The notes under the pieces were generated by a model that was not told where the DNA came from, did not search any database, and saw only the letters and a list, made by a program, of their open reading frames with translations. Positions 34,977 through 64,000 of a DNA stretch of 64,000 bases are shown here, one piece after another. Source of the DNA: Pseudomonadota bacterium. GTDB lineage: Bacteria; Desulfobacterota; Desulfobacteria; Desulfobacterales; JBDRRP01. A program made the position numbers and the translations under genes. Within the stretch, counting starts at the first letter, position 1, and every line of letters begins with the position of its first letter. The DNA is taken from NCBI GenBank assembly GCA_043825735.1, contig JBDRRP010000107.1, forward strand, positions 124,001-188,000. The letters are read 5' to 3'.

Positions 34977-36068
34977 TCACCCCCGCCCCCCATCCACGCC
35001 ACCCCCCAGAATCGCCACAACCCGCCGGTCCTTCAGCGCGCCCTCGCCATGCTTGGCACGGATATGATCGATAATCCCCGCCTTTTCTTCTCCGCAGATC
35101 GGGCAGACGGTTCCACTTCGCATCTCTTTGAAGAGTTCGTCGCGCACAAAAAACAACCACAGCCCGAAGGGCAGAATCCACTGGTTGAGGATGATCAGCG
35201 CCACGAGGGGGCCAAAGGCGTAGCGGAAATGAAACTCGAGATAAAGCACCTTGATCAATCCGAAGATGAAGTAGGCTGCGACCAAAACGCCGAGACCGAT
35301 GCCGATCTGACGGGCTTTTCGCCGCCATCCGGTGTGCCGCGAGGCCAGCATGAGGGCGGAAAAGGCCACGAAGTGAAACGTGTTGAAAGTATCCGGGTAG
35401 CGTTTCAACTCTACGGGGACGGTCGCGGCCATTCCGAAAAGCGATAGCACCCAGCCAATGGCGAGCAGGTTGACACGAACGAAGGCCTCATCCAGAAACA
35501 GCCAGAGGATGAACAGGGCGCACGATGCGGCGGCGAAGCGCGCGGCAAACAGCGGCATGCTGTCTTTGGGGGGCGATTCGGCGGTCTCTCGAAGCCAGAT
35601 CATGCAGACAATGAGCACCATAAGGATCATTACGATCTGGCCGATATAGACATGGGCGATCTCGAACCAGAACCGCGAGTGCATCCCCACGATCACGATG
35701 AAGGCGAGCCTCGTCAGGTTGAACACAAACAGGCTGGGGATGCCGAGCGCCAGACCGAGGGCCTTGTGCCTGAGATCCGATGGATAGGCCAGCACGAAGC
35801 CGGAGAAAAGAATGATCACGAAGATCGCCGAGCATTCGGTGATGATTTTTACGCTGAATCCGGCCGTAGTGATGTTGACGCCCCGTACCGCCGCATCGAC
35901 GCCGAGCGCCGACAGGAGTATCCCGGTCAACGACGCCGTATAGGTGTTCATGGGGCCGATGAATGCCGTCGGCGGCAGATAGTTGACCAATGTATAGGAA
36001 ATGCCGCAAAAGAGAAGAAATTTGATCGTGAACGCAGCCATCGTTTTTTGAGGGGTGAGAGTAGTCAT
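34977..36068 (-). CDS. Exosortase/archaeosortase-family protein with extra membrane domain and C-terminal C2H2-like motif
   Basis: Triad motifs IITECSA (Cys), NLTRL (Arg), FEIAHVY (His); tail CPIC-x9-HIRAKH. Confidence 0.88.
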   Translation of the reverse strand: MTTLTPQKTMAAFTIKFLLFCGISYTLVNYLPPTAFIGPMNTYTASLTGILLSALGVDAAVRGVNITTAGFSVKIITECSAIFVIILFSGFVLAYPSDLRHKALGLALGIPSLFVFNLTRLAFIVIVGMHSRFWFEIAHVYIGQIVMILMVLIVCMIWLRETAESPPKDSMPLFAARFAAASCALFILWLFLDEAFVRVNLLAIGWVLSLFGMAATVPVELKRYPDTFNTFHFVAFSALMLASRHTGWRRKARQIGIGLGVLVAAYFIFGLIKVLYLEFHFRYAFGPLVALIILNQWILPFGLWLFFVRDELFKEMRSGTVCPICGEEKAGIIDHIRAKHGEGALKDRRVVAILGGGVDGGRG

Positions 36069-36333
36069 TACTGTTTACGTCCTTCAGCAACTCGATTTTC
36101 TAAAATACGCTTATGCAGAAACCTCCAGCAGGTCTCTTCCCACAATGATGTTTAACCACGGGGTCACGGAGGGCACGGAGATTTTGTAATCAAAATTAAC
36201 TACTTTTGATTTTCGCCGTGACTCAGTGGTAATCAAGCAGGTGTGGGGTAATGACCTTTGAAAGAGCACTATAGCTTCATAGAGAAGCGTATTCTAAAAA
36301 GTTCAGGTTAAAGTACTTGCCGATTTCAAGGAT

Positions 36334-36512
36334 GCCGGTGCTCCCCGGGAAAGTTCCCCTTTAGAAAAGCCTCTGCTGCTCATGTCCCCCGTTGAGAAAG
36401 CCCCCGCGGTTAAAGTCCCCCTTTGAAAAAGGGGGATTTAGGGGGATTTGGTATTTGGATTTCCCACGGCGCTAAGAAAATCCCCCCCGGCCCCCCTTTT
36501 TCAAAGGGGGGA
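36334..36512. repeat. Composite CCCCCTTT-AAAGGGGG repeat unit
   Basis: Several palindromes with flanks shared with 47610-47790 and 49499-49850. Confidence 0.85.
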
Positions 36513-36925
36513 GAAAAAGAAGCCTACGGCCCACTTATGGAAAATAGGGTACAACTGCTAAGGTGTTTACAGGGACCGGAGTCGGCCAAATATATACCCA
36601 GGCAGGCCGGTTGAGCGACTGCAGGAGGATGAATCCGCCGCATCGGTTTCCGTTCACACCATACGATGGCGGAAGGGTCGGAACAAGGCTGAAAATATAA
36701 CCTCTCAGCAAGCAGAACCGGCTAACCTCCGGATAGTCCTCAATCGAATTCTAACTTGACACGGGGCGGTGGTCTCTGATTTTTATCGGGGCTGGTCTTC
36801 CGAACGAATCGATACTCGACGACGTTTCGGATTTGGGAAGAACGATTTTTACTCCACCCAAAGTTCGACGGAATCCGAAATATTCCTGGGCACTTTGCTG
36901 ATCCGCCGCCGGCGGGTACCAGAAA

Positions 36926-36970
36926 ACCCGGGACCGGCTGCAGGTGCGGCCGGTCCGGGTCCTCTTTTTT
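36926..36970 (+). terminator. Intrinsic terminator in the leader of the 37005 gene
   Basis: Stem acccg-ggaccggctgca / tgcggccggtcc-gggt, then cctctttttt. Confidence 0.75.
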
Positions 36971-37004
36971 TAACGCGCCATTCAGCCTTCAACGGGTCGA
37001 TGCC

Positions 37005-37928
37005 ATGAGATTATACCAGCGAAATAGTGTTTTTCTATTTTGCGCGATGCTGGCCTGGCATGTCACGGTGGATTGCCAAGCGTCCTACGTGCTGGGCACT
37101 TCGACCAGCGCCACGGTTACGGTCAGCGAAAATGGCGAGACCGTATTCAGCGGCTACGACAGTATGCGGCATGGCGTTTATTCCGCCAGCCGTGCTTTCG
37201 ATTCACTTCCTCGGATTGGCGGTGGTGACATCATCTCAGCGGAGGGCCGCGCTTACGCCGACTCCGCCAGCGCGACCATTGGTGCCTATGCCCATACCAG
37301 CGGCAAAGGTGTTTTGATCGACCCTGGATCGTCGACCGCTGTTTATGCGGCATCCATCTCCAATCTGACCGTACGGTACCGGGTCGTTTCGGATATGATT
37401 CCGGTCGGCACTCCGGTGGACCTTGTCGCAGAACTGTTGTTTCACGGAACGATGGACATGAAGTATTACCCGGTTAACGGGTTTCTCGGTATCTATGACA
37501 CTGTGAAAGCGTATGCCCCGGACGATACCCTTGTTGCCCAACACCAAGGCGGCGCATCTTACAGCAGTACTTGGGGGGCGTCTGTTAATGGCGGATGGAC
37601 TTATGGGGCTGCCCGGGATCCAAATCTCGATTTCGATGTGAGTTATATCGGCCAGTTGCAGTTTTCAGGCATCGTCGGCGATCAATTCGTCTTCTCGATG
37701 GATTTGTCGACCAACCTTCAGGAAGGCTCTTATGCATACAGAAAGATCATTGAAGGCGATATTCAGGGTAGCTACGAACTTTTCGCAACGGATCCGGACA
37801 CCGGTTTGATCATGGATTCTGTTTTCCTCGAACCCCAACCGGTCCCGATTCCAGCCGCCGCCTGGTTTTTCGCATCCGGCCTGGCCTGCCTGTCGGGTAT
37901 ACGGCGCCGGTCACGGAAGAGGCTTTGA
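37005..37928 (+). CDS. Exosortase-target surface protein (VPxPA/PEP-CTERM-type tail)
   Basis: Signal peptide; C-terminus VPIPAAAWFFASGLACLSGIRRRSRK. Confidence 0.9.
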   Translation: MRLYQRNSVFLFCAMLAWHVTVDCQASYVLGTSTSATVTVSENGETVFSGYDSMRHGVYSASRAFDSLPRIGGGDIISAEGRAYADSASATIGAYAHTSGKGVLIDPGSSTAVYAASISNLTVRYRVVSDMIPVGTPVDLVAELLFHGTMDMKYYPVNGFLGIYDTVKAYAPDDTLVAQHQGGASYSSTWGASVNGGWTYGAARDPNLDFDVSYIGQLQFSGIVGDQFVFSMDLSTNLQEGSYAYRKIIEGDIQGSYELFATDPDTGLIMDSVFLEPQPVPIPAAAWFFASGLACLSGIRRRSRKRL

Positions 37929-38300: not shown

Positions 38301-38391
38301 CATTCTCATCAAAGTGTTATCGTTGGAAATCAATCAAGGCCCTGATGGTGCCAATTACCGTATAATCGTTTCGATGAGGATTGTGAATATC

Positions 38392-39084
38392 ATGAAAGCC
38401 TTTCTTAGATTTCTATCGGTGGTCCTGTTCACGGCATTTCCGAATATGGTATCCGCGGAATTGATCGATCGTGGTGGCGGACTGATTTACGATACCGTGC
38501 TTGATGTCACCTGGCTTCAGGACGTTAATTGGGCAATGACATCAGGGCACCACAAAGATGGAAAAATGACTTGGCCGGAGGCCATGGAATTCGTCGCGAA
38601 CCTGAAATACTACGATCCGGTTCGAAAGGTGGCTTGGGATGATTGGAGGCTGCCAACGGCGAAAAACCGTGACGGCAGCGGCCCTGATCGAGGGTACTAT
38701 ACCCGGAACAGCGAACTGGGCCACATGTACTACAACAATTTGGGCAATCGCGGTCTTTACCCTGAAGAAAAAAACAAGATCGACGGCAGGGATAAATCCC
38801 GCGGCAATCCCAGAACCAGAAAAACACCGCAGGAGGACTATGGATTGAAAACCAGTGGACCGTTCATCAACCTGACGCTGTCCTCGGAATTCTGGACAAG
38901 CACAGAGGCCCCGCGCTACTCTCCAAAGGATGATCCCAGGCACCCGATCAATGCCTGGGATTTTTTTATGAACACCGGCACTCAGTCCTACTGCGACAAA
39001 TGGGACCACTGGTTTTTCGCATGGCCGGTCAGGGATGGCGATGTGGCTTCTTTAATCGAGGACAACAAAAGCGTGAATCAATAA
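38392..39084 (+). CDS. Secreted DUF1566/Lcl-C-like protein without a sorting tail
   Basis: Signal peptide, LIDRGGGLIYD...TWLQD, DDWRLP, SELGHMYY, FWTST, AWPVRDGDV. Confidence 0.85.
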   Translation: MKAFLRFLSVVLFTAFPNMVSAELIDRGGGLIYDTVLDVTWLQDVNWAMTSGHHKDGKMTWPEAMEFVANLKYYDPVRKVAWDDWRLPTAKNRDGSGPDRGYYTRNSELGHMYYNNLGNRGLYPEEKNKIDGRDKSRGNPRTRKTPQEDYGLKTSGPFINLTLSSEFWTSTEAPRYSPKDDPRHPINAWDFFMNTGTQSYCDKWDHWFFAWPVRDGDVASLIEDNKSVNQ

Positions 39085-39147: not shown

Positions 39148-39972
39148 TCAGTCAAACCGTGAAAGGCTGTCCTGGTAAAATTTCAGCCGGTCCCGGTCAT
39201 GGACAGGGGGCAGGGCTCCGGTGGACATCTTCACCGCCGCTTCGTAGGCCGCATCCGATTGGCCGGTTCCGATGCGCTGTTCCACCATATCGATCAGTTT
39301 TTGAAGCCGGAACCTGGGGTCCCGCGGGTTGCCGCCGGCCTCTGCCGAACCGGCAGGGTTCAAGGTAGGATGAGTCGCATCATCCATCGGGGCCGAGGTC
39401 CCAGGCGATTCATTGCCACCAGTAAGACCGGCAGACCCGGCGCCGCCTGGATACGATTCCGGATATCCGCCGGCAACAGGGATACCGGATCGAGAGGGGA
39501 GCGCGGAAACCATGTTGCGGTTCTGGCCGGCGCGATTATTGCCTGATTTGACGCCGGGGCGTTTTACAACCGATAAATCGGAACTATCGGAATTGTCTTT
39601 TGGTGATTCACCCTGCGAGGGAATGCTGACCATAACATGGAGTCTTCCCCCGCTGCCGCCCGGTTTGAAGACCGCCGCATAGTTCACATCCCTCAAAACG
39701 GAAAGCAGGACTTGATGGATGTCGGCCTGCCGGAAATCGAAGTCCCGGGTAACGGAACCGACGGCATCGTATATATACAGGTCGAGACCTGTGGAACGGG
39801 AAAGGCTTTCAAGGAAAGCGCTCACCGATACGCTCCGGGCGCTGAAGGTGACATGGCCCTTGTTTACCGTCATCGGAATTTCATCCGGAGCCGATGCTCC
39901 GGCTGCTGAAAAATGACAGCAAATATAAAGGATGCATGCTGGGATGGTCACTATGAAAAACCGGGTCCTCAT
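39148..39972 (-). CDS. Exported protein with STN/secretin-N0-like domain and low-complexity linker
   Basis: Signal peptide from MRTRF (39972); VTFSARSVSVSAFLESLSRSTGLDLY. Confidence 0.6.
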   Translation of the reverse strand: MRTRFFIVTIPACILYICCHFSAAGASAPDEIPMTVNKGHVTFSARSVSVSAFLESLSRSTGLDLYIYDAVGSVTRDFDFRQADIHQVLLSVLRDVNYAAVFKPGGSGGRLHVMVSIPSQGESPKDNSDSSDLSVVKRPGVKSGNNRAGQNRNMVSALPSRSGIPVAGGYPESYPGGAGSAGLTGGNESPGTSAPMDDATHPTLNPAGSAEAGGNPRDPRFRLQKLIDMVEQRIGTGQSDAAYEAAVKMSTGALPPVHDRDRLKFYQDSLSRFD

Positions 39973-40694
39973 GAGAAATCTCCCGTTGTTGGAAACGAGG
40001 TTCTGAATCCACATGCCCCAGTCCCTTCCGGGAAGGGCGTGTTTGATATGGCCATACCCACCCGGTAACACCGATTTGTTTGCGCAAGATGAGTGTCTGC
40101 ACCGATCCGAAAAAGCGCCACATGGTTTTGCACAGTGCATCCAGATGCGGTGGGTGCGACCGGTCCGGCGACGGGCGGCCGTGCCATGCCCATAAATAAA
40201 ATACTGACCACTAATATTTAGCAAATACGGCAAGTCTAAAAAGGCCGCATTCGGGGAGGACGGCTTTACATGCCACCTGCGGCAGGCAATCCGGACAGTC
40301 CCGTAAAAAGGCTTAAAAGTAACGCTGTCATACCCGGTAGTTCGTGTACGTCCAGAAATGCCTCTCCCCGGGCGTGAGGGGATAGGGAAGGGGCACTATA
40401 TATGAGCGATAACTGTTTAATTGCGGGTGGTTGACACCATCATCACGCCCCTCTCCAATCGAGAGCTGGAGATGAGCACACCGCCCACGGTTGGAAACGA
40501 TAACCCCCGTAAGAAACGCAGAATGCCGGCTCCGGCCGGCGTGACGGCAAAAAGATCGCTTCGGCTTTTCCGGGAGCATCCATTTTGAAGAATCACCAGA
40601 TGCCGGTGCGATCGATGCTTTCTGAGGAGACCCTTCGTTGAAAAAAAATGCACCCGTCGAGAAAAGCAAAAAGAAAAAATGCAGTGAGTTCGAA

Positions 40695-40871
40695 ATGTTA
40701 AATGATTACGAATCACGGTTTGTCAGGCTGATGGAGTTTCTCAGCGCGCTCAATGGCGGTGGATTCACCGGCTATGTCAAGATCAATTACAGCCAGGGGG
40801 CGATCGCCCGCGTCGAGAAATTTGAAGAAGTCTTAAAGAGCAATAAAAAATCCGTAATTACAAATGATTAG
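40695..40871 (+). CDS. Small DUF2292/YezD-like protein (58 aa)
   Basis: GFTGYVKINYSQGAIARVEKFE resembles the FG-x-V-x-I...G-x-I-xx-IE pattern of DUF2292. Confidence 0.6.
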   Translation: MLNDYESRFVRLMEFLSALNGGGFTGYVKINYSQGAIARVEKFEEVLKSNKKSVITND

Positions 40872-41048
40872 AACCGCGATGGACAATACGATCAGGCTTG
40901 CGAGCCATTCCCGGCAGGGTTTGCCGAAAAACCATCGAAGCCTAATAAAGTGCTAACACGGCCTCGGTAGAAGACAGAAAACTGAATTGAGAGGGGATTG
41001 AAAAACCCCTGATCGGGAACTTGGCCGATTCGCTTTCGCGAACACCGG

Positions 41049-41097
41049 AAAGCCCGAACCCAAAGCGCTCAGCGCGTAGTGGGTTCGGGCTTTTTTT
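41049..41097 (+). terminator. Intrinsic terminator 55 nt upstream of the 41152 gene
   Basis: aaagcccgaaccc / gggttcgggcttt stem, T7 run. Confidence 0.85.
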
Positions 41098-41151
41098 GTT
41101 TTCACACGGGGAGCGCCTCCCAGTCGACTGGATGAAGAATTAAGGAGCGGT

Positions 41152-42021
41152 ATGAGAATCTGGCTGGTCATATTGACACTGTTTTCACTGGTGGCGGCCG
41201 CCGCGCCGTCAGACGCCTATTTCGAGTCTCCGTCATTGAATCTCTTTCAGGTCGTCTACAAGGCCGGCGGCGTTGAAGTGGTTACGGATCTGGGTGCTAT
41301 CAAAAACGCTCAGGGCGATACCGCATTGCAGCCCGGGCAGACGCTGGCGCCTTCGGCGGGGGTATCGCACCTGGCGTTCAGTGCCTTCGGAACGGAAACC
41401 GCCTGGGGTGACCTTCGGGTCGCCTATTTTGGGACCGATGCCGACAACTTCACCTGGTTTGCCACTGCCAGCGCAGACAAGCCCGATTTTAAAGGCAGCA
41501 GCGAAGAGTTCGGATACGCTAATTTCTCCTTTTCAAATTACTATAAAGCCCAATCCGCATCCCAGGGAACCAATCCAGTGACCGGGCAATCCGATTACTT
41601 CCATGACCCGAATCCCGAGTTGGCGATGATCCCGGCGCTCCACCGGTCATTGATGCACACCGCCTATAATATCGGTATGAATCATGCTTACGACAGCGCA
41701 ACCGGAGACTGGTCGGCATTGCCGGACGCAGGCACCTTTGCCGGACTTCTTGCGGGACCGGTCGGAGAAGTCGACCTGTCGGATATGGCCGCCTTCGGGT
41801 ACGTGGACATGTATCTCTGGAGCGCCGAAGATCTTGCCGCGCCCTACGGCGTCCTGCGATTGACAGATAACGGTGAGACGGCGCTGATGACCTATATCGC
41901 GCCGACGACGCCGATACCCATCCCCGCCAGCATCGTTCTTCTCGGCAGCGGCATTGCCGGGGTCGTCGCCGCAAGAAGAAAAAGAAATCGAAATTCTGAC
42001 GAGCGGCTCATTGAGCGATAA
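41152..42021 (+). CDS. Exosortase-target surface protein (IPIPA tail), paralogue of 42438
   Basis: AGGAG RBS, signal peptide, IPIPASIVLLGSGIAGVVAARRKR; shares AYF, DLG, GYVD motifs with next gene. Confidence 0.9.
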   Translation: MRIWLVILTLFSLVAAAAPSDAYFESPSLNLFQVVYKAGGVEVVTDLGAIKNAQGDTALQPGQTLAPSAGVSHLAFSAFGTETAWGDLRVAYFGTDADNFTWFATASADKPDFKGSSEEFGYANFSFSNYYKAQSASQGTNPVTGQSDYFHDPNPELAMIPALHRSLMHTAYNIGMNHAYDSATGDWSALPDAGTFAGLLAGPVGEVDLSDMAAFGYVDMYLWSAEDLAAPYGVLRLTDNGETALMTYIAPTTPIPIPASIVLLGSGIAGVVAARRKRNRNSDERLIER

Positions 42022-42171
42022 CGAAAAGGCGGTAGTATTCAATAAAACAGTTCATCGGCAAGCGCGAACAAGTTTCCTTAAACAAGAGACGGCGGCATCG
42101 AAGGGAGGTGGTAGAAAGCAATCCGGGTTTACGAGGTTAAGCAGCAATCAACCATCAGAATAAATGATTCT

Positions 42172-42396
42172 TCCTCCAGAAAAAGCCAAACCCGCCGTGA
42201 GGCGGGGACGGAAAGCGACGGGTCTTGAACCCACCCACCTTCGCGGCAGCAGACGGTGCAGACTGGCACAGGGTCTCTCGATAGAGATCCACGAAAGTAG
42301 CAGCAAAGAAAAGACAACCAGGGATCGACCATACCAGTACTGCCGGAAGCGACAACGCGAAGCGATGATGGACAAGACAGCCGGGCTGCCTGGGAG
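42172..42396 (+). promoter_or_regulatory. c-di-GMP-I (GEMM-I) riboswitch with large P3 insertion
   Basis: gccAAAcccgcc-GTGA-ggcggg-GACGGAAAG-cgacgggtcttg ... caagacagccgggctgcc; P1 ctccag/ctgggag. Confidence 0.85.
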
Positions 42397-56000: not shown

Positions 56001-59000
56001 CCGATCATTTTTCCGGCGGGTCGGTTTCATTGACATCCACGGGAGGCAAAATCAGCCTTGCCAAAGGTTCCATGATCGACGTTTCCGCCGGCGCACAGGG
56101 AGATGCCGGCAGCCTCGCCCTTTCGGCGGTCACCCTGGGCGTCTCGATCCAGGGGGAGCTACACGGAAACGCTGAAGGGGTTGGCAGGCTTGGCGGGTCC
56201 TTTTTCCTTGAGACCGACTCCCTGGATATCGTTCCGGGAACCGGCGAAAACCGGCTGGGAACGGTGATCCAGTTGCTGTCCGGGACGCAAGGGGGCTTTG
56301 ATAAGGACATCACCATCAGGACGCGCTCGGGTGATTTGTCGGTGCCGACAGGCCTGGCGATCGAAGGCCGCACTGTTTCTCTTACCGCCGATACCGGCAA
56401 CATCGAGTTGTCCGGCCGGATCGACGCTTCGGGGGCGGATGGCGGGGGCATGGTCAGACTCAATGCCGGCGGCGACTGGATTACGCTCTGGTCGGGAAGC
56501 CAGATTGCGGCCAACGGCCTGAGCGATGGCGTTGCCGGCGGTGACATTTCACTCGGTGTCGGCAAAAATGGATATATCGTGCTCATGAGATCCACACTTA
56601 ACGTCTCCCCGGGCAATGGCGGAGAGGGCGGCGGCATCTATCTGCGTGCGCCGAGAAACGCAGCCAATGACGACGTCAACGTGTACTTTCTGGGAGCCCG
56701 CATCGATGGTGCCTCCCGCGTCACCGTCGAAGGCGTCGGAGCGCCCATCACCGCATCGACGGTGACCAGCGGCATGCAGGCCATGACGGACTGGAAAACC
56801 AGCGCGGAAGTCTTTATGGGCAGCCTTGTCACCGTCGGTGAAACGACGAAGACCAACCGGCAGGTGATCGTCGACCGGTTGGCCGGCGGATTGCTCAATG
56901 ACGGCGGAGAGGTCCCCATCGACGTGATCCCAGGTCTCGAGATTGTCAACGACGGCGACATCAGGCTGGGAGATTTGAATGATGCACAATTGTCCTCTCT
57001 GGACCTGAGCGCCTGGCGCTTCGATGGTCGGGCCGGTGCAATGACAATACGGGCCGGCGGCAACCTGACGATCACGGACCACCTCGTGGATCACCCGACC
57101 ATCGGAATTCGAAAAAATGCCGAAACGACCGGTTCCGGCTCCTGGGCCATCACGCTCGCGGCCGGGGCTGACCTTACCAGTACTGACCCATTCGCCATCA
57201 ACTATGGGGTCGGGGATCTCGAATTGACCAATGGCGTGATGGTGTATTCCGAAAGCGCGCCCATCCGTTTGGCTTCCGGAAACGATACGATTATCGGGAC
57301 CGCCAGCACCACCAGCTATATGGTCAATACGGCCACCCGGTACAACCTGGGCACCTTTGACGGGGATATCACAGGGCGGGTCGGCGGCGATCTCGAAATC
57401 AACGGCGGGGTCATCCAGTCCGCCTTGGGCGACATCGATATCGATACGAAGGGCAACCTGTATCTGAATCTGGACACTGGCATCAAGGGATCCATTCGAA
57501 CCACCGGTGCCGCTGCCGGCACGGCCTACAACGATTACTGGCGCTACTCCGGCGGCGGCGACATCCGCCTGACAATCGGCGGCAGTGTTACCGGAGGGGT
57601 TTACGAGGGCGGCTGGGACCATAATTATAAATCGCGCGCGCCTTACGAATGGGCGGCGAGCTACCAGAACAACAAGGTCACCTCGGGGCTGGCCACCATG
57701 GGCGGCGGAGACCTGACGGTTTTCACCGGCGGCAACTTCTATACACAGGCCGGCACCTTTGGCGAAGGCGACCTCAGGATCTTCGCCCGAGGCGATGTGG
57801 ATGGACGCTTCTTAGTGAAAGCCGGGCATGACAGCAGCATCGAATCGCTCGGTAATTTCGGATCCAAGCCGCTCCTTTCAAATCAGGCCATCGAAATGTT
57901 CGATGCCCGGGTCGGTATCACGGCCCTCGGAAACGTGTCCATCGGGGCCGTGGTCAACCCCACCATCGCCCGGGCGAATTTTAACGGTGTTTTCTGGAAT
58001 CTGACATACACGGAAGCATCCGCCATCGACATCGCCGCGGTCACCGGCAGTGTGACGCTTCACGGCGACAGCCGATATTACAACAACATCGGAACTGCCA
58101 TTCAACTGGAATCCATTTTGCCGGGGACGGTGAGCATCTTTGCCGGTCAGGACATCCGGCTGCTTAATGAGTTTGCCATGGCCCCGGCGGCCGAAGGCAA
58201 CCTGACACTGAACGCCGGGGGGACCATCGACGGGATCTACACCAAACCCAACGATCCCCAGTTCTATTACGCTCTGATCGCGATGTCGGATCTGCCGCCC
58301 GAAGCGGTTTATGGGGCGCATCGGGATTTCGACACCAGCCGGCTCTTTTCCGGCGCAAGAGACCTCGAATCCCATGCGGACCTGCCGATCCATGGCGCGT
58401 CGGATACCACGGAAGTCCGCATCACGGCCGGAGAAGACATCCGGAATCTGTTTCTGACGCTTCCCGAGCCGGCTGTGATCCGGGCCGATAGGGACATCCG
58501 CAATATCAACTACTTCGGGCAGAATATCCGTTCAGGCGATGTTTCCATCCTTTCGGCCGGCAGGGATATTTCCCAGAACTCGCCGACCAACCGGACCACC
58601 GCGGGCATCACTCAGAACGGCCCCGGAGCCCTGGTCGTGATCGCCGGCAACACCATCGATCTCGGCAATTCGGAGGGCATCCAACTGACCGGAGCGGCGT
58701 TCAACACCGCGCTGGATTCTGACGGCAGCGAACTGCTCCTCATGGCCGGATACTCCTCGGCACCGTCCATTGTCGATACGGAAGCGTTTTTTAACCAGGT
58801 CAGGAAGGCCGGTGAAGATTACAGCCTTCTCATGGCCTCGGGCAACCGGGCTGGTGCCAAACAGTATATCGATCAATTTCGGAGCGACACCGTCGATGAT
58901 TTTTTTGGCGAAACCGCCAAGGGAGCCGGTGACATCGACATGATCACTTCACAGATCAGCAGCGGGGCCGGCGGTGACATCTACGTGTTGAACCGAGGCA

Positions 59001-59716
59001 GATACAATGTCGGGAGAAGCACCCTGCCGGACAGTGGCGAGGACGATGACGACGAAAAAGGCACCGGCATCATCACCGCCTCCGGTGGCGGCATCAACAT
59101 CTTCTCCATCGGGGACGTGAACGTCAATGAATCCCGCGTCATGACGTTTCTGGGCGGGGATATCACCATCTGGAGTGACCAGGGGAGCATCAACGCCGGC
59201 CGGGGTGCGCGGACTGCCGTGAGCGTGGACCCGCCGGAGCCCGTGCCGGACGATAACGGCGTACTGGTGCTTCAGTTCACTCCCCCGGCCGTCGGCAGCG
59301 GCGTGCGGACGCTGACATACGATCCCGACGGCATCGAAGGGCCGAAAACCGAACCGCTGGCCGGCGACGTATACCTGTTTGCCCCGGAAGGGATCATCGA
59401 CGCAGGGGAAGCCGGTATCTCGGGACGTCGCGTGGTGTTAGGTGCCACGGCCGTGCTGAACGCTCAGAACATCACTTTCTCAGCCGGCTCTGTGGGTGTG
59501 CCGGTGGGCGGTGATACTGCCATTTCATTAGGGGCACTATCCGGCGTCGGTGCCTTGTCAGAAACCAAGGCACTGGCGGACCAGACGGCGGTGAATCAGT
59601 CCGGCGGTAAACGGTTGAACGACAGCGAGAGCCAGTTGGCCGAATCGCTGATGCCGAGTTGGCTTGATGTACGGGTCATCTCCTTCGAAGAAGAAGAAGA
59701 AGAAGAAGAAGAATAA
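50030..59716 (+). CDS. Filamentous-haemagglutinin-family TpsA exoprotein, DUF3739-type C-terminus (3228 aa)
   Basis: TPS domain (WASFNIG, LNRI, VFLVNQNGIVFG), beta-helix repeats, C-terminal GDITIWS..INAGRG...LFAPEGIIDAGEAGI. Confidence 0.93.
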   Translation: MNIIRKHLKRFRFIQYWLVLSLFISPTGAGAKTIFQGAFRNTTPPPSGTVPVLLPGFVPSGASVDDPVTQAGAEYPILVKIRQDADSPKVTLKWASFNIGDQVNVHFDQANSSDVALNRIYDQSPSLIYGKLSATGRVFLVNQNGIVFGPGSEVNLNTLIASSLNISDSDFEKGLWRFQAENYLGKADYTLPGAVSNHGDILLDPLGGVYLVAPNVENAGTITAPIGQIGLAAGTDVEIAPDPFPNSTRGALVVNARAGAGTAENLAGGRLEAETGTIGMYGKVVRQEGLIRAVTAIRRKGQIELRASDRVETVAGSVIETPITESDEAVHESFDFAGGTIRIEGLDAANPVNPQIPVPTFDHHGTISAPAGTITVNAGQRIFLDTRSVIDVGGIWAQRSAADNIVSMQLNSVELRDDFFQKGGFLQGKTVYFHRIHGTAIGNAAAHLQSDVLTAQERAVSGGVINLTAGAGDIIIKSDALLDFSGGGYRYAGGTVETTQLFSQNVTFNIADAPSNIRYDRMALQGEYSQAYTEGADAGQLNLHGRRIVLDGRIDGSATQGIYQTAAAEPVNAHGFQKAKGWILPKGGDLYIGRPFTGSSPEIKNAIVEDILIEGALDPLPLSFKVDDDLPSLYDSGRTNANGDPLRLTRLSSDTLSNAGLGSLVIYANTGVSITPEARISLAPESRVSITARSILHQGTISVPAGSVALAVADNKTSFDQVFGQDNRDYHVEMAERILLDTGSVISVAGERVNNNQTNQAPSVRPAKLAGGSISALDNTVAGADIVMKAGAALDVSGGYELDARGGLDSGAAGSITLRARSLALDGRIEGFSFQGEEGGRLDLGAWNIRVANEHIALPESFEMADRLPEGLMNSLLLDPAMPAAGGFTKIALQSVFDATVSSGITLAPSFQKRGLDGQRRLTRLTVAPEEIGGSSIAITAGQDPPNMPTNENDLAVLTVEPFAAIVAAPGGSINLSAPAVRIDGALRAPAGTVAAKATQKDLVTGNGAVLYAGGFLKPDRSARLPGGLMGYTPMDAGSVSLSASTGTLKLSAGSIIDVSGTAAVSDLVFDAGRYQWVNHAGAAGSLSLVVSDTDAMVLDGTLNGKAFLNSVPGGVLSIQGTDAAKALMISGGQLQGWADSGFGAIRLASTSAVRFSGTAAIDLSQDFTIDAPRIEDALVGGTVAAEADASDITIRANSVHLTNTFWPGTVASQGGNARLSITGGQVDVEGGIVFSRFGQVSIAAEGDLTLADRLYRMEGRDPLWRGEVISSGDITLKARRIYPRQVFDELDPSKASPSTVRIQAGDILTVLPGISQAVDTPIHSAGGDLTLIAGGIDIKGYLAAPLGTITITATDRAYLDGGSRLSVAGAADVHYGKADEVFWYTFSKEDGSTDAPVTVDAAPEKAIHISGSEVIFRDGAEIDISGGGSLFAYAFYPSPEGSVNPFSAGGRKVVMPAGLAPVSGEALYLEGAGALPAGNYVVVPESFGFSPEAYIIEPVDMMPAPGRQIRTAEGYPVAAGYETIVGTGYRSAQSRGYAVRKASEVKSSEGYFVYREIDAGDAGKLVIDGAVSTVMQGNIIADAVPGFRPASLSLSGREITVALSGSEKLDNFDFDTPLSETYRNKLYLDAAAVGQMQLETLNLGNTASTTRISLAEGTRLRAEHVSLNAEGDILMNGDAAIMGIGDSATASLVTTGGSIHISALAQVTASGNISIDTGSLVMAGVLNAGGGLILSSKTLSLKSDRMTLLAAGADATAHTGSLILGSALWTTFGQYAGVTLTGREQLVFDGDATLSVSTTAIGFDTPWIVGRDATGDGKALVTIDAKSIGLKNSSLVTDAVGIGGQGSITLVGDTVELGHGNIGFDGFGLVEVNSDDIMAVRGEGAIHSGGGIKLTASKMITGFYQDENIASENAGYAFTAAAGNIEIAGTGVNSDTESIPGGRLHFEGTSITLDTHIETPSGQVVFLATGSGAGDGIFLGADADIIARGTDHFSGGSVSLTSTGGKISLAKGSMIDVSAGAQGDAGSLALSAVTLGVSIQGELHGNAEGVGRLGGSFFLETDSLDIVPGTGENRLGTVIQLLSGTQGGFDKDITIRTRSGDLSVPTGLAIEGRTVSLTADTGNIELSGRIDASGADGGGMVRLNAGGDWITLWSGSQIAANGLSDGVAGGDISLGVGKNGYIVLMRSTLNVSPGNGGEGGGIYLRAPRNAANDDVNVYFLGARIDGASRVTVEGVGAPITASTVTSGMQAMTDWKTSAEVFMGSLVTVGETTKTNRQVIVDRLAGGLLNDGGEVPIDVIPGLEIVNDGDIRLGDLNDAQLSSLDLSAWRFDGRAGAMTIRAGGNLTITDHLVDHPTIGIRKNAETTGSGSWAITLAAGADLTSTDPFAINYGVGDLELTNGVMVYSESAPIRLASGNDTIIGTASTTSYMVNTATRYNLGTFDGDITGRVGGDLEINGGVIQSALGDIDIDTKGNLYLNLDTGIKGSIRTTGAAAGTAYNDYWRYSGGGDIRLTIGGSVTGGVYEGGWDHNYKSRAPYEWAASYQNNKVTSGLATMGGGDLTVFTGGNFYTQAGTFGEGDLRIFARGDVDGRFLVKAGHDSSIESLGNFGSKPLLSNQAIEMFDARVGITALGNVSIGAVVNPTIARANFNGVFWNLTYTEASAIDIAAVTGSVTLHGDSRYYNNIGTAIQLESILPGTVSIFAGQDIRLLNEFAMAPAAEGNLTLNAGGTIDGIYTKPNDPQFYYALIAMSDLPPEAVYGAHRDFDTSRLFSGARDLESHADLPIHGASDTTEVRITAGEDIRNLFLTLPEPAVIRADRDIRNINYFGQNIRSGDVSILSAGRDISQNSPTNRTTAGITQNGPGALVVIAGNTIDLGNSEGIQLTGAAFNTALDSDGSELLLMAGYSSAPSIVDTEAFFNQVRKAGEDYSLLMASGNRAGAKQYIDQFRSDTVDDFFGETAKGAGDIDMITSQISSGAGGDIYVLNRGRYNVGRSTLPDSGEDDDDEKGTGIITASGGGINIFSIGDVNVNESRVMTFLGGDITIWSDQGSINAGRGARTAVSVDPPEPVPDDNGVLVLQFTPPAVGSGVRTLTYDPDGIEGPKTEPLAGDVYLFAPEGIIDAGEAGISGRRVVLGATAVLNAQNITFSAGSVGVPVGGDTAISLGALSGVGALSETKALADQTAVNQSGGKRLNDSESQLAESLMPSWLDVRVISFEEEEEEEEE

Positions 59717-59753: not shown

Positions 59754-61559
59754 TTGGAGGTCGGGTTGGGAAGAATGAATATTCAAAAAGTTGTCTTGTA
59801 TTTACTTTTGACCACTTGTTTTTTACATACGGGATTCGCCGCAGGCGAATCCCATGCGTGGTGGAACGACCAGTGGAAATATCGGAAGAAAATCACTCTC
59901 AACACATCTGCCACGGGGGGCGAAATCCAGAGCAGCCTTGCTGATTTCCCGCTACTGCTGCGGCTTCATTCAGCCAACTTGACTTTTGTCAACGTTAAGG
60001 AAACCGGAGAAGACATCCGGTTCGTTGCGGCAGACGACAAGACACTGCTCAAGCACCACATGGAGCAGTTTGATGGGTTGGGTGAGATGGCGCTGGCCTG
60101 GGTGAAGGTGCCAAGCATAGCGGGCAACTCGCCGGCCAACAGCATCTGGATGTATTACGGCAATCAGGATGCCGCCGGGGCCGAAGACATGAAGGGCACG
60201 TATGAAGGCGGGTTCGTGGGCGTCTACCATTTCAACCAGATCGAAGGCATTCCGCAGGACGCGAGTTCCTACGGCAACAATGCCGCCGAGTTCACGGCCG
60301 CCATGGGACTGCCCGGCGTGATCGGCAACGGCGCCACTTTCAGCGGGGCCGGGGACCGGATGCGGATTGCGGATTCACCGTCGCTGAATTTTTCAAGCGG
60401 GTTCACCATTTCAACCTGGTTCAAACTACCGCAGCTTCAAAAGGATGCCTACCTGTTCTTCAAGGGTAGTGATTCGAGCGCCCTGCTTGTCGGCACGAAT
60501 GGCAACGATGTGTTCTGCCGTCTCACGATCAGTGAGAAGAAAACCCTGGAGACGATCACCAACGCCGAACTGACGTTGGACACGTGGCACCACCTTGCAG
60601 TGACCGGCATGGCGGGCGGCAAATTGCAGATTCTTATCGACGGCATCGACAGGAGTGGGATCGATCTGCCGCCGGTCCTGCCGGAAATCAAGGGAGATGT
60701 CTTCATCGGATCGGCTGCCGACGGCAGCCACGGATTCGCCGGGGATCTGGACGAGCTGAAAATCTCCGCCATGGGCCGCACCCCGGACTGGTCCGTCGCC
60801 GGGTTCCGATCCCAGGGGCCCGAAGCGGCGCTGGCATCCTTCGACTTGGAAGAGGTGACCGAGAGCGGCGGCATGCCGGTATTCTATCTTGCCACCGTTT
60901 TCAAGAACATCACCCTCGACGGTCTGGTGATTATCGGCATGCTCATGATTCTGGCGCTGTTCAGCTGGATCATCATGATCAGCAAGGCGGCCTTTTTGTG
61001 GCTGCTGGGCAGCGACAATGCCAAATTTCGCGACCTCTACCGCCAGGCGGAAGACGTGGCGACCGTGCCCGCCGACAAGGCCTCGCTCAGCAACTCCTCG
61101 TTTTTCAGGATCTATCGAGGCGGCATGGACAGCATCAAAGCCTGGTTTGGCGAGTCCTCGGCGGAAAATCCCTGGCGACGGCCGCTGACCGTCAAGGAGA
61201 TCAAGACGTTCAAGAATGCGCTGGAAAAAGGGCTGATCGAGGAGGCCCGGCGAATGAACACCTGGCTCATCGTATTGATCATGTCCATCTCAGGTGGGCC
61301 GTTCCTGGGTCTGCTGGGAACGGTGTGGGGGGTCATGAACACCTTTGCCGCCATGGCCGAAGCGGGTGAGGCCAATATCGCGGCCATTGCCCCGGGCGTT
61401 GCCTCGGCCCTGGCAACGACGGTATTTGGTCTCATCGTCGCCATCCCGGCGCTCTTTGGCTACAACTTTCTGGCCGGTCGCATCAAGGACATCACGGCGG
61501 AGATGGCCGTATTCGTGGACGACCTGGCCCTGACCATGGAAAACCGGCACGCGGAGTAG
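59754..61559 (+). CDS. DUF2341 + LamG-like + MotA/TolQ/ExbB fusion
   Basis: WWNDQWKYRKKI, DIRFV, WVKVP, WMYYGN; WHHLAVT, LDELKIS; GPFLGLLGTVWG, IAPGVASAL. Start may be ATG 59775. Confidence 0.92.
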   Translation: MEVGLGRMNIQKVVLYLLLTTCFLHTGFAAGESHAWWNDQWKYRKKITLNTSATGGEIQSSLADFPLLLRLHSANLTFVNVKETGEDIRFVAADDKTLLKHHMEQFDGLGEMALAWVKVPSIAGNSPANSIWMYYGNQDAAGAEDMKGTYEGGFVGVYHFNQIEGIPQDASSYGNNAAEFTAAMGLPGVIGNGATFSGAGDRMRIADSPSLNFSSGFTISTWFKLPQLQKDAYLFFKGSDSSALLVGTNGNDVFCRLTISEKKTLETITNAELTLDTWHHLAVTGMAGGKLQILIDGIDRSGIDLPPVLPEIKGDVFIGSAADGSHGFAGDLDELKISAMGRTPDWSVAGFRSQGPEAALASFDLEEVTESGGMPVFYLATVFKNITLDGLVIIGMLMILALFSWIIMISKAAFLWLLGSDNAKFRDLYRQAEDVATVPADKASLSNSSFFRIYRGGMDSIKAWFGESSAENPWRRPLTVKEIKTFKNALEKGLIEEARRMNTWLIVLIMSISGGPFLGLLGTVWGVMNTFAAMAEAGEANIAAIAPGVASALATTVFGLIVAIPALFGYNFLAGRIKDITAEMAVFVDDLALTMENRHAE

Positions 61560-61562: not shown

Positions 61563-61970
61563 ATGCGACGCAATCTGTTCGAACAATCGGTGTTTGATGA
61601 AATCAACGTAACGCCGCTGCTGGACCTGGCCTGGACCCTGCTGGTCGTGTTTATCATCGCCGTGACGGCGGCGGTTCAGGGAATCAAGGTCAATTTGCCC
61701 AAGGCCAGCAACGTGCCCAGCATGGTGAAGCCAAAAACCAAGGCGATCACCATCGCCGCCAACGGGCAGATGTATCTGGACGCCTTTCCGGTGAGCATGC
61801 AGGATCTGGAAACGCGGCTTCGCCAGTACAAGGCCATCGACCCCAACTTCCCGGTGGTCATCAAGGGGGACTCCAAGATCTACTACCAGGCCGTCATCGA
61901 TGTTCTGGACCTGCTTCAGAAGCTGGAGATCACCCAGATGGGACTGGTGACGCAGAAGCTGGTGAAGTAG
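61563..61970 (+). CDS. exbD: ExbD/TolR biopolymer transport protein
   Basis: EINVTPLLDLAWTLLVVFII, VNLPKA, VVIKGD. Confidence 0.92.
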   Translation: MRRNLFEQSVFDEINVTPLLDLAWTLLVVFIIAVTAAVQGIKVNLPKASNVPSMVKPKTKAITIAANGQMYLDAFPVSMQDLETRLRQYKAIDPNFPVVIKGDSKIYYQAVIDVLDLLQKLEITQMGLVTQKLVK

Positions 61971-62128: not shown

Positions 62129-62223
62129 CAACGCTCTTAACAAACCTAACGCTCTTAACAAACCTAACGCTCCTAACGAACCTAACGCTCCAAACGAACC
62201 TAACGCTCTAAACGATCCCAACG
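62129..62223 (+). repeat. Tandem array of 18-bp (2x9) units AACGCTCYTAACRAACCT
   Basis: About five degenerate copies; no unique spacers. Confidence 0.85.
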
Positions 62224-62261: not shown

Positions 62262-62305
62262 AAACCTTGAACTTTGAACCCGGAACGCGGCGCAGCCGCC
62301 AACCA
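62262..62305 (+). repeat. Heptamer repeat plus GAACGCGGCGCAGCCGCC tail
   Basis: Second copy of the 29281 unit. Confidence 0.75.
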
Positions 62306-62318
62306 CCAACCGACTTTT

Positions 62319-63005
62319 ATGAAAAACCGGAATCAAAAAGTTGTGATCCTTACCGGCGCATCGGTCATCGCCCTGTGCATGATCTGCGTCGGGGTGTGGA
62401 TCATCAAAATGCTGGTAGCCGACGACAGCCAGAAGCGCCACCGGAGGATCCAGCAGATCACCATGCTCAAACCGCCGCCGCCGCCGAAGGTCAAGGAAAT
62501 GCCGCCGCCGCCCGAGATCAAGAAGAAAGATGAGATCGTCGAGCAGCCGCCGGAGGAGACTCCGCCGGAAGACCAGCAGGATGCCAGCGACGAACCGCCG
62601 CCGGGTGACGACCTCGGGCTCGACGCCGACGGGTCGGGCGGTGCGGACGGATTCGGGCTGCGTGCCAAGAAGGGTGGGCGGGCGCTCATCGGGGGGGGAC
62701 TGGGGACGAACTCACTTCTCCGAAAATATGCCTGGTACACTGAAATTCTGCAGAGCGAGATTAGAAAGCGGGTGAGAAAGTACCTGGAAGAAAACGGGGG
62801 CGTTCCCAGCGGCAGTCTCAATACCTACGTCAAGATCCGTATAGACGCGGCTGGACGCATCAACAACTTCAAAATATACGGATCTTCGGGAAATGCCTCC
62901 ATGGATCAAGCGGTCACCGAGGCCATCAAGATCACCCAATTCGGTGAAACGCCGCCGGATGGGATGCCCCTTACCATGAAGCTGAAGATATCGTCGAAGG
63001 GATAG
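62319..63005 (+). CDS. tonB: TonB/TolA-family energy transducer
   Basis: N-terminal TM, Pro/Glu-rich linker, C-terminal SSGNASMDQAV. Confidence 0.85.
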   Translation: MKNRNQKVVILTGASVIALCMICVGVWIIKMLVADDSQKRHRRIQQITMLKPPPPPKVKEMPPPPEIKKKDEIVEQPPEETPPEDQQDASDEPPPGDDLGLDADGSGGADGFGLRAKKGGRALIGGGLGTNSLLRKYAWYTEILQSEIRKRVRKYLEENGGVPSGSLNTYVKIRIDAAGRINNFKIYGSSGNASMDQAVTEAIKITQFGETPPDGMPLTMKLKISSKG

Positions 63006-63184
63006 AAGGGCAGGGGACAGACGGAAAGACAGTGGGCAGAGAACAGGGGGAAGAAAATTCCGGCTATTGGTTATGCACCATTCTCCAGTGACTGGGCATG
63101 CGTTGCCTGGAAAGATGATATTCTTCGCTGCAACGAGAGCGCCTGGCGTGGGATCCCAAACGGGCGGCCCGGACCACGAGATAA

Positions 63185-63281
63185 TGTAGGGTGCGGGGTT
63201 TATCCCCGCCCGTACTCGGGTAACCGGAGACGATTGGGTCATCTTCGCCAATCGTGGGAGGGGATAATCCCCTCCCCCACA
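63185..63281. repeat. Pair of GTAG-type REP-like hairpins
   Basis: gtagggtgcggggtttatccccgccc and gggagggggataatcccctccc; a similar pair lies at about 29121-29210. Confidence 0.55.
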
Positions 63282-63349
63282 AAAGTGCATAACCGGATTC
63301 CGGATTAAGGCTATGTCACCACAGAAGAGCGGGGAAAACGGAGTTTTTA

Positions 63350-63412
63350 AACCTTAAATCTTGAACCTTGAACTTCGAACCCTGAACCCTGAACGCGGCG
63401 ACGCCGCCTACC
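63350..63412 (+). repeat. Heptamer repeat plus GAACGCGGCGACGCCGCC tail
   Basis: Third copy of the 29281 unit. Confidence 0.75.
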
Positions 63413-63440
63413 AGAAACGTTTTTTGTCGGGAGTTTACCT

Positions 63441-64000
63441 TTGAGAAAACAACGAACTTTGATCGCGGCACTCGTTATCGCCGGCATGCTGCTGGTGTCG
63501 CCGTGTATCGGATTTCCCGAAAGTCAGCAGGACGCCGGAAAGGGGTTCGAAGGTACCGAAGCACTCATTGAACTCCTTAAGGAAAAAGGCGTCATCACGG
63601 AAAAAGAGGCTGAGCGGTTCGTTGACCGGTATCGCACCAATGAACGGCGGCAGCCGTCTCAGGTGATCACCATCGTCCCCCGGGAACAGTCCGACGAAAT
63701 GGTGACACGCATGACCCGGCAGGTCACCGACCAGGTGACCAATGACCTTCAGAATGTCCAGCAGGACCTGGACGGAATGAGCGAAGAATTGCTGCGGCGT
63801 TCACGGCTCCAGGAGAAAAAAATCGAAGATCTCGAACGGGTGCTCAAGGATGACCACGGCACCAAGCTTTTCAATTCGAGCTGGGCCCAGCGCATCCGGT
63901 TCGGAGGAGACGTCAGGCTTCGTCACCGCAGGGATTTTTATGCCAAGGACAATGCGAGATTCGTTCCCAAAGTCGGCAGCCTGACCGAATATAAAGACAT
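63441..64000 (+). CDS. Putative porin, truncated by the window edge (not in ORF track)
   Basis: TTG after GGGAG; signal peptide, LIELLKEKGVITEKEA, coiled coil, SWAQRIRFGGDVRLR. Confidence 0.8.
   Translation, partial: MRKQRTLIAALVIAGMLLVSPCIGFPESQQDAGKGFEGTEALIELLKEKGVITEKEAERFVDRYRTNERRQPSQVITIVPREQSDEMVTRMTRQVTDQVTNDLQNVQQDLDGMSEELLRRSRLQEKKIEDLERVLKDDHGTKLFNSSWAQRIRFGGDVRLRHRRDFYAKDNARFVPKVGSLTEYKD

Follow-up and report, generated by a model that had tools for sequence, protein, structure and literature searches.

A candidate TonB-coupled two-partner secretion cassette with a PstS-fold surface protein and a terminator-overlapping leader RNA in a Desulfobacterota genome

Introduction

Why should a giant two-partner secretion (TPS) protein be encoded in one run with its own ExbB/ExbD/TonB genes, a phosphate-binding-type protein and sorting-tailed surface proteins? 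The question is raised by a 64,000-nucleotide stretch of a Desulfobacterota genome, positions 124001–188000 of contig C107 (JBDRRP010000107.1), which is referred to below as the window and whose numbering is used throughout. A preliminary description of this DNA listed an exosortase, VPxPA-tailed proteins, a PstS-like protein, two FKBPs, TpsB, TpsA, DUF2341-ExbB, ExbD, TonB and a porin, all of which are present by Pfam, NCBIfam, fold or tblastn evidence. It placed three VPxPA genes ahead of a co-oriented run starting at 40695; the genes are confirmed but the order is not, as two of the three (41152 and 42438) lie inside the run. Here, the gene content, linkage, folds, conserved TpsA tail and RNA structure of the run were analyzed by computational tools. 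The run is very probably one functional unit, and modeling of one of its contacts suggests a TonB-coupled two-partner system; the fuller reading, in which such a device carries a phosphate-binding-type surface module, we regard as evenly balanced. The cassette core is already known, unexplained, in Pseudomonas aeruginosa (pdtA/pdtB-exbB2-exbD2-tonB4-PA0696), and the additions made here are a predicted TonB box in the TpsA tail, a leader RNA and a riboswitch extension.

Results

Conservation of the cassette

The core of the run, on the forward strand, consists of TpsB (47906–49486; POTRA_2 and ShlB barrel, PF08479 and PF03865 above cut-off), TpsA (50030–59716; 3228 residues, with a TPS domain and, near the C-terminus, DUF3739; PF05860 at E = 6e-24, PF12545, and TIGR01901 above cut-off), a DUF2341–LamG–MotA/ExbB protein (59754–61559; Pfam), ExbD (61563–61970; PF02472), TonB (62274–63005; membrane anchor, Pro-rich linker and TonB_2 domain; Pfam) and Porin_5 (PF16930, E = 5e-104), which starts at 63441, crosses the window edge at 64000 and ends at 65174 (577 residues, the sole copy in the genome). 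A coiled-coil gene (65204–65923, coordinates only) continues the cassette past the edge. Its TpsB has POTRA domains and a barrel and its TpsA an N-terminal TPS domain, which makes the cassette a member of type Vb (two-partner) secretion. No TonB-dependent receptor or plug domain was matched by Pfam among the run genes, Porin_5 included, and Porin_5 has no solved relative by sequence.

Conservation was surveyed with a profile (A1) of 78 PstS-fold homologues, chosen among 120 listed, which retrieved 78 genome loci. Among the best 80 of 133 confirmed stretches from which these derive, most loci belong to Desulfobacterota and Nitrospirota, and the closest named relative of the PstS-fold gene is from Desulfobacterium sp. 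N47 (69%). Of the 73 loci that extend more than 500 nt upstream of the PstS-fold gene, 72 have a co-oriented VPxP-CTERM gene, recognized by its tail pattern, immediately ahead of it, and the single exception has a homologous gene there that the pattern overlooked. TpsB, TpsA, ExbB or Porin_5 is present in 39/39 loci of at least 20 kb and in 66/78 overall. Matches to the cassette TonB, nearly always single, occur in 49 of 50 genomes that hold the PstS-fold gene (the 50 loci were picked from the 78, mostly for long contigs), and across 40 regions fetched around TonB matches the order TpsA-ExbB-ExbD-TonB-Porin_5-coiled coil is mostly the same. The gene-neighborhood survey that the preliminary description had proposed therefore found its modules linked in relatives, and its account of a recurring, functionally uncharacterized cassette is borne out: the gene order recurs in dozens of genomes, which argues against chance, and the P. 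aeruginosa core is described as uncharacterized in the literature cited below.

Full-length Porin_5 is rare, being found in 7 of 301 phylum genomes (an even sample, source genome included). Separately, 35 further genomes of the 301 carry shorter or weak Porin_5 matches, mostly frames of 420–480 residues and often several per genome.

The TpsA tail and the cassette TonB

The TpsA C-terminus is ordered as DUF3739, a poorly conserved linker and then conserved residues 3211–3219, of which five positions are hydrophobic in 36/36 aligned sequences. From its conservation and a complex model, the terminal strand with its acidic tail (residues 3210–3222; 59657–59695, +) is predicted to be a TonB-binding box, and in sequence it resembles a TonB box. 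The strand pattern occurs in 36 of 38 TpsA C-termini (four proteobacterial ones included) compared with 36 of 1002 other long open reading frames (ORFs), a background that includes shadow ORFs; both misses differ from the pattern by one conservative residue. The genome holds a second TpsB/TpsA pair (contig C4, ~6800–10800), in the longest open stretch of whose TpsA the pattern was not found.

The ESMFold2 complex places TpsA residues 3210–3222 on the last strand of TonB (234–243) and on helix 148–171, in a register that is antiparallel as read off the contact list, and its runs share at least 92% of contacts. The model of the TonB C-terminal domain with the TpsA tail reached an ipSAE of 0.67, against 0.03 for the best of three controls; this value is reached by 116/157 solved complexes and 2/215 mismatched pairs, a calibration that applies only roughly to our own 36-row alignments. 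On this modeling, we lean towards the cassette TonB binding the TpsA tail. As in TonB-box and TolA-box complexes (see also the discussion of VreA in PMC2729926), a short hydrophobic strand would extend the C-terminal sheet of TonB or TolA, but here the box stands at the extreme C-terminus of a secreted filament. No published TonB box in a TpsA was found in an open-access literature search.

The TonB C-terminal domain is also matched by a VreA-type protein of Methylosinus (E = 1e-6 in a set of 27 proteins), from which arises the idea that a VreA-type protein may read the same TpsA tail.

The PstS-fold protein, its foldases and PEP3

Upstream of TpsB lies the gene for a Cys-rich PstS-fold protein (43271–44701, +; 476 residues), assigned from its AlphaFold2 (AF2) model (predicted local distance difference test score, pLDDT, 93), a Foldseek match to 4exl (E = 2e-12, TM by target 0.82) and invariant residues; against TIGR02136 it scores 43.9 bits, under the cut-off of 206.6. 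Residues G34, S36, S88, D142, R315, S319 and G320 are invariant in 78 PstS-fold sequences, and we presume that they are the equivalents of the phosphate-site residues of Escherichia coli PstS. The protein has a signal peptide, no lipobox by eye, no ABC genes alongside and 16 Cys (5–27 in homologues), so it is not the PstS of a transporter. The family is broad, with 344 clusters at 50% identity (E ≤ 1e-30).

Two foldase-like genes follow on the same strand. The first (45118–45969) encodes an FKBP-like predicted lipoprotein without a Pfam or NCBIfam match, recognized by tblastn to the FKBP part of the second (E = 9e-10), and the second (46282–47577) encodes FKBP and thioredoxin domains (PF00254, PF13899); in several relatives the two are apparently fused into single ORFs of 610–790 residues. 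The thioredoxin motif is CxxS here and CxxC in about half of the homologues. The FKBP–thioredoxin protein is likely to be a foldase for the Cys-rich partner.

Three VPLPA-CTERM proteins each score above the TIGR03370 cut-off: PEP3 (42438–43196, +), whose gene directly precedes the PstS-fold gene, its paralogue at 41152–42021 (+; own hidden Markov model (HMM), E = 5e-39) and a distant relative at 37005–37928 (+; own HMM, E = 1.5e-14). The PEP proteins upstream of PstS-fold genes form one family, which includes the window genes 41152 and 42438. PEP3 is modeled by AF2 at pLDDT 90. It gave no Foldseek match at E ≤ 0.001 and a best VIA hit of Z 4.1 (rmsd 3.7, 95 aligned), which does not imply a new fold; in the Atlas, feature matches stay below 0.9 and structure matches are unnamed clusters. 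A weak likeness to the flocculation protein PepA (E = 2e-6) is far under the cut-off.

Exosortases and the PEP-CTERM context

The gene upstream of the run at 34977–36068 (−) encodes exosortase H (XrtH; TIGR04177 110 bits, cut-off 86), which has an additional membrane part at its C-terminus, and 11 of 78 loci have an XrtH homologue at most 10 kb away. The preliminary description had made this exosortase part of the system; as its NCBIfam model is not that of a VPLPA-type sortase, it is probably not the cognate enzyme of the VPLPA tails. An XrtD-like gene (best model TIGR04152, 371 bits against a cut-off of 400) is found at C107:213.5 kb, ~25 kb past the window edge, and an island of ~72 kb holds 5/6 of the genome's VPLPA matches, both exosortases and its sole Porin_5. 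A single protein in the genome has an IPTL-CTERM-like tail (16.9 bits, under cut-off): a secreted, by eye protease-like protein with TSP3 repeats (L001:12498–14546, window-equivalent 74498–76546), a candidate XrtH substrate.

Like known PEP-CTERM/exosortase systems (XrtD/VPLPA-CTERM, XrtH), the locus has VPLPA tails, and its island contains a polysaccharide cluster along with two exosortases; what sets it apart is the tie between one family of PEP-CTERM proteins and a PstS-fold gene plus TPS–TonB cassette. Exosortases are present in 48/50 genomes carrying the PstS-fold gene and, by hand count, within 60 kb of TonB in 25/49 (many of the other contigs being short), whereas the closed chromosomes G332 and G333 have none near the cassette. 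In the phylum sample, exosortases occur in 106/301 genomes, including all 7 with full-length Porin_5, so that most exosortase genomes are without the cassette. This disparity, together with plasmid cassettes that have no nearby PEP-CTERM gene, speaks against PEP-CTERM proteins in general being the cargo; the preliminary description had proposed exosortase-anchored proteins as cargo or coat.

Phosphate control in the cassette family

A de novo motif of three 11-bp Pho-box-like repeats was found upstream in most of 47 relatives' promoter regions, and 13/47 relatives score at least 11/12 on a Pho pattern, against 0.4% of shuffles. In P. aeruginosa, PhoB binds the pdtA and phdA promoters (PMC4971064). 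Phosphate control of the cassette family is thus likely, in line with the phosphate scavenging put forward in the preliminary description, but no Pho box was found in the promoter in the window; within the island, the best score is 10.5 and is not at a promoter. That phosphate capture is the purpose of the device we rate at somewhat short of even.

A leader RNA that overlaps a terminator

Ahead of the paralogue gene 41152, the run contains a leader RNA (41015–41055, +) with a GGG/CCC-closed stem, two bulges and a variable hairpin, the 3′ strand of which is also the 5′ arm of a strong intrinsic terminator (41050–41101, +; fold −35 kcal/mol, z −6); the two stems are mutually exclusive. The pattern has 59 copies in 49/79 sequences, of which 55 were aligned after removal of a copy cut off by an edge, a duplicate locus and two second copies. 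The pairs are 94% standard, two core pairs show double changes (in 10 and 6 sequences), and covariation is 0.219 against 0.105 in shuffled alignments (0/500), an upper estimate because the search pattern itself favors pairing. Four copies are present in the genome, none of them outside the island, and a VPLPA gene follows each; one copy (36884–36972, +; 33.7 bits with model R1, sequence and fold) overlaps a terminator-like hairpin ahead of gene 37005.

A motif-first metagenome scan, from which 80 of at least 123 loci were fetched, recovered the terminator arm after the leader RNA in 65/80. Among the 63 loci with 700 nt downstream, 29 precede PEP3-family genes, 40 a PEP tail, and 25 have a GEMM riboswitch downstream; others precede TpsA or, by eye, metallophosphoesterase-like or protease-like secreted proteins, hinting that the leader RNA may mark a wider regulon of secreted scavenging enzymes. 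By eye, five loci carry it ahead of secreted metallophosphoesterase-like genes (L176, L182, L194, L210, L240), and it precedes protease-like genes in L170, L177, L181, L184 and L216. In a genome search, which covered 80 of 300 genomes and scored only 74 candidates in each, the model matched 4/6 Porin_5-positive and 0/74 other genomes. Five proteobacterial plasmid loci gave no copy of the leader RNA.

None of 4227 Rfam models reached its gathering score over the window motif, and none gave E ≤ 1 over the motif in eight related loci. No published account was found in an open-access search that did not extend to the supplements of PMC5737381 and PMC11109978, which may describe this RNA or GEMM variants. 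Even chances are given to a protein-dependent antiterminator, a small-molecule riboswitch being the less probable option and some other mechanism improbable. The ribonucleic antiterminators (RAT) of the BglG/SacY type are protein-dependent. They share with the leader RNA a short bulged stem whose 3′ strand overlaps a terminator, and they differ from it in sequence and in having a binding protein, for which there is here only a candidate. That candidate is the conserved 58-residue ORF which opens the run (40695–40871, +; no family match, homologues in 46/78 loci). It is a weak one, because the ORF lies upstream of the leader RNA in only 27/75 motif-first loci; 'YezD-like' is a presumptive label for it.

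A c-di-GMP-I riboswitch ahead of PEP3

The GEMM riboswitch reported in the preliminary description is a cyclic di-GMP (c-di-GMP-I) variant at 42172–42402 (+), with an insert of ~145 nt in P2. The RF01051 match itself covers 42175–42263 (43.4 bits, gathering score 35), and fold and homologues indicate that the true 3′ half of P2 is probably at 42373–42402, so that the element, correctly placed inside the run, extends to ~42402. Its 5′ strand has a possible alternative pairing partner in the ribosome-binding site of 42438, pointing to a switch of the translational ON type; the riboswitch probably turns PEP3 translation on.

A c-di-GMP-type riboswitch lies 5′ of the PEP gene in about half of related loci, in keeping with the c-di-GMP control proposed earlier, for which the ligand is assigned from sequence class. 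In the 78 loci, the specificity position is G in 35 pattern matches, in which the basal pair of the first hairpin is swapped, and A in one; the window copy has G. We assume the rule that G or A at this position separates c-di-GMP from 3′,3′-cGAMP, under which the sole copy with A (L062:8975, Nitrospirota) is possibly cGAMP-sensing. The swapped basal pair and the long P2 insert of the window copy set these elements apart from other c-di-GMP-I riboswitches (RF01051; variants RF03167, RF03168); relatives' copies score best with the c-di-GMP-I-GGC or -UAU variant models.

Cassettes on proteobacterial plasmids

Five of 13 plasmid matches were opened. On an Aquabacterium plasmid, a PEP-CTERM gene and a hypothetical gene precede TpsB-TpsA-DUF2341-ExbD-TonB-porin. 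The Methylosinus and Klebsiella cassettes are paired with STN/ECF/FecR genes, that of Methylosinus also with a PBP_like_2 protein, and the Cupriavidus cassette adjoins a type II secretion system (T2SS), with no TpsA in view. No PEP-CTERM gene is annotated within 20 kb of the Klebsiella, Cupriavidus or Methylosinus cassettes. The Methylomagnum plasmid has a binding protein, which matches the PstS-fold family (E = 7e-13 in a set of 14 sequences), TpsB, TpsA and a porin, and no ExbB or TonB match in a 41-kb stretch.

In the place of PEP3, ahead of its binding-protein gene, the same plasmid encodes three paralogous secreted proteins (L091:14278–19612) without sorting tails, two with Cys-rich repeats, for which PEP3 homology is not significant. 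By-eye motif alignments of one Methylomagnum protein, and of the Aquabacterium PEP and hypothetical proteins, with PEP3 and the PstS-fold family were rejected (profile probability 1–19%; HMM negative for Aquabacterium). The Klebsiella quasipneumoniae plasmid (L094) is conjugative and carries a whole cassette of the P. aeruginosa PUMA3 type near insertion sequences and arsenic-resistance genes; the cassette may thus be transferable between hosts.

Neighboring genes

Between XrtH and the run are a Lcl_C-like accessory protein without a sorting tail (38314–39084, +; PF07603 E = 7e-7, under cut-off) and an accessory protein without a Pfam or NCBIfam match (39148–40233, −), homologues of which lie beside the cassette in L056, L061, L127 and L128; an AAA_14 + DUF4143 ATPase (33660–34811, +) adjoins the exosortase. 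Intergenic gaps within the run reach 543 nt, palindromes or short tandem repeats widen gaps at 36400–36515, 47744–47764, 49522–49542 and 62130–62200, and a terminator-like hairpin follows the PstS-fold gene at 44753–44780. A sigma-70 promoter scan gave fewer matches than shuffled sequence, and a single 8-base match to the RfaH ops core, just 3′ of gene 41152 (~42027–42035), is at chance level.

Further upstream in the window are pstSCAB (5570–9154), lying 3′ of genes for two large histidine kinases and sharing the direction of the T2SS cluster, the T2SS cluster itself (15373–27156) and lapG/lapD-like genes (28336–31304). The T2SS cluster encodes GspD, C, L, K, G and F, GspB and a divergent ExeA-like ATPase (TIGR03015, 284 bits, under cut-off), and a second GspD is on contig C58. 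A T2SS was rejected as a fixed part of the cassette: Gsp genes lie within 10 kb in 4/78 loci and, by hand count, GspD N0 within 60 kb of TonB in 4/49; a secretin N0 match occurs somewhere in 50/50 genomes carrying the PstS-fold gene. The LapG-like C93 protease and LapD-like c-di-GMP receptor (+) also stand beside the cassette in L134, with weak LapD-like matches in L049 and L050; no LapG-type site was seen by eye in the TpsA tail, and LapG cleavage of TpsA was set aside.

Past the window edge, Porin_5 and the coiled-coil gene are followed by TPR/mannosyltransferase-like genes, more VPLPA genes, a polysaccharide cluster and the XrtD-like exosortase. The membrane proteins at L001:3942–10283 have TPR and/or mannosyltransferase-like (PMT) domains, with homologues near the cassette in 12/78 loci, and glycosylation of surface proteins is a possible function.

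Discussion

In the explanation that we prefer, the run encodes one envelope-spanning device. Following established TPS logic, TpsB would thread the giant TpsA outward, N-terminal TPS domain first, while the C-terminal tail would be kept in the periplasm, where its last strand is modeled to pair with the last strand of the cassette TonB. ExbB, ExbD and TonB may then pull or hold the filament by proton motive force, for tension, retraction, release or load sensing. The Cys-rich PstS-fold protein, folded with FKBP/thioredoxin help, and exosortase-anchored PEP3 would form the ligand-binding surface part, with Porin_5 as the likely entry channel. The purpose of the family would most likely be surface capture of phosphate or phosphorylated nutrients in the sessile state, and expression here appears to be gated by the terminator-overlapping RNA and the c-di-GMP-type ON riboswitch, with no detectable Pho box. 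The modules that the preliminary description joined in one energized envelope apparatus do form a conserved unit, and a direct TonB–TpsA link has support from the model.

Several points weigh against this explanation. Type V translocation is described as using no hydrolysable energy or gradient (PMC5422565). In the TonB/TpsA model, the partner pLDDT is low (54–56); because the TonB domain resembles HasB, TonB and TolA structures, the passing score may reflect memory of solved TonB-box or TolA-box complexes, and the modeling covered TonB, the TpsA tail and three controls. The surveyed loci are kin, a few of which share a genome, and the linkage counts are not independent. With regard to phosphate, the best Pho-box score upstream of 40695 is −4.8, compared with 17.8 for the same matrix elsewhere in the genome; a canonical pstSCAB operon is encoded separately (5570–9154, −; four genes over NCBIfam cut-offs); no PstS-like gene is annotated within 20 kb of the Klebsiella and Cupriavidus cassettes; and the Aquabacterium hypothetical protein matches profile A1 at E = 0.04 at best. 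In P. aeruginosa PAO1, tonB4, pdtA and PA0696 single mutants show wild-type virulence in zebrafish (PMC2729926).

The TonB of the cassette might instead energize Porin_5, or its coiled-coil partner, for uptake, TpsA being a co-regulated adhesin or scavenger whose tail binds, for example, TpsB. The precedent is HxuABC of Haemophilus influenzae, in which a TpsA is coupled to TonB-dependent uptake and TonB acts on a separate receptor, HxuC (PMC5422565). TonB adjoins Porin_5 in nearly all regions fetched, Porin_5 has by eye a long N-terminal periplasmic part, and the Methylomagnum arrangement lacks a match to ExbB or TonB; but Porin_5 matches no plug or TonB-receptor family, no separate receptor of the HxuC kind was found in the run, and TonB is predicted to bind TpsA itself in a model that passed with controls near zero. 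We consider this uptake scheme unlikely, and slightly more so a biofilm or matrix fiber, in which PEP3 and the PstS-fold protein would be abundant coat subunits without phosphate transport, co-activated with the polysaccharide cluster by c-di-GMP. The riboswitch ahead of PEP3, the location in the genome's one exosortase/polysaccharide island, the weak PepA likeness, the lack of a Pho box in the window and the hairpin 3′ of the PstS-fold gene, which would raise PEP3 and PstS-fold levels over the machinery, all fit a fiber, whereas the invariant phosphate-site residues and the Pho-box-like repeats of relatives do not; a fiber is also compatible with the device that we prefer.

That the cassette is an outer-membrane exporter of PEP-CTERM proteins in general is very improbable: exosortases accompany all seven full-length Porin_5 genes of the phylum sample and nearly all PstS-fold genes, often close to TonB, but within the genomes searched, 99 of the 106 with an exosortase had no full-length Porin_5, some cassettes stand without a PEP-CTERM gene nearby, and those of G332 and G333 are unlinked to an exosortase. 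A chance neighborhood of unrelated surface genes in the island, to which the large intergenic gaps and the rare linkage of T2SS (4/49) and XrtH (11/78) might point, has next to no probability and is refuted for the core by the 72/73 and 39/39 linkage and the shared leader RNAs; it may hold for XrtH, the T2SS and lapG/lapD.

Our preferred device can be set beside the PUMA3/sigma-VreI regulon of P. aeruginosa, which comprises the hxc T2SS, lapA, pdtA, pdtB, exbB2-exbD2-tonB4 and PA0696–PA0700; exbB2-exbD2-tonB4 is called uncharacterized and PA0696–PA0700 unknown (PMC2729926, PMC4971064, PMC7035377). Co-occurrence of PUMA3, TPS, ExbBD and PA0696 in several proteobacteria was noted in 2009 (PMC2729926). 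Both loci place TpsA/TpsB by ExbB/ExbD/TonB, a putative porin, a helical protein and a peptidyl-prolyl isomerase (gene table in PMC7035377), a likeness resting on annotations and proteobacterial plasmid homologues rather than alignment of PAO1 proteins. The window run differs in having FKBP/thioredoxin in the place of a PpiC-type isomerase, a PEP-CTERM protein as fixed partner, the GEMM riboswitch and the new attenuator, and its T2SS is 14–25 kb off and rarely linked in relatives. The cassette works like the PUMA3-controlled locus except in two features: this copy has no Pho box, and no vreAIR (STN/ECF/FecR) families were found in a scan of ORFs that ran from 33660 to the polysaccharide cluster and was confined to that stretch. 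Geobacter PEP proteins (PMC10599522) provide context only.

The domain at the C-terminus of VreA has been modeled as TolA/TonB-like, with speculation about an outer-membrane partner, and in Rhodopseudomonas palustris and Janthinobacterium three vreAIR repeats are each followed by a tpsA (PMC2729926). This arrangement fits a broader, tentative proposal, which we hold to be less likely than not: the DUF3739-type TpsA would be the direct substrate of a dedicated ExbB/ExbD/TonB motor, its C-terminal TonB box serving to pull a filament of 3000–4000 residues so that captured phosphate-bearing material can be hauled in, let go or sensed; the VreA domain would have its missing outer-membrane partner in the same tail, making TpsA/TpsB a split TonB-dependent transducer; and regulons of secreted proteins in Desulfobacterota would have in the leader RNA a new class of attenuator.

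The leader RNA may represent a new regulatory class, and PEP3 is a PEP-CTERM family with a constant genetic partner. TPS has been described as energy-free, and the described targets of TonB are plug-and-barrel receptors; a TpsA with a TonB box, if true, would join the two. It would also provide a candidate job for P. aeruginosa exbB2-exbD2-tonB4, called uncharacterized as late as 2020, and a candidate partner for VreA.

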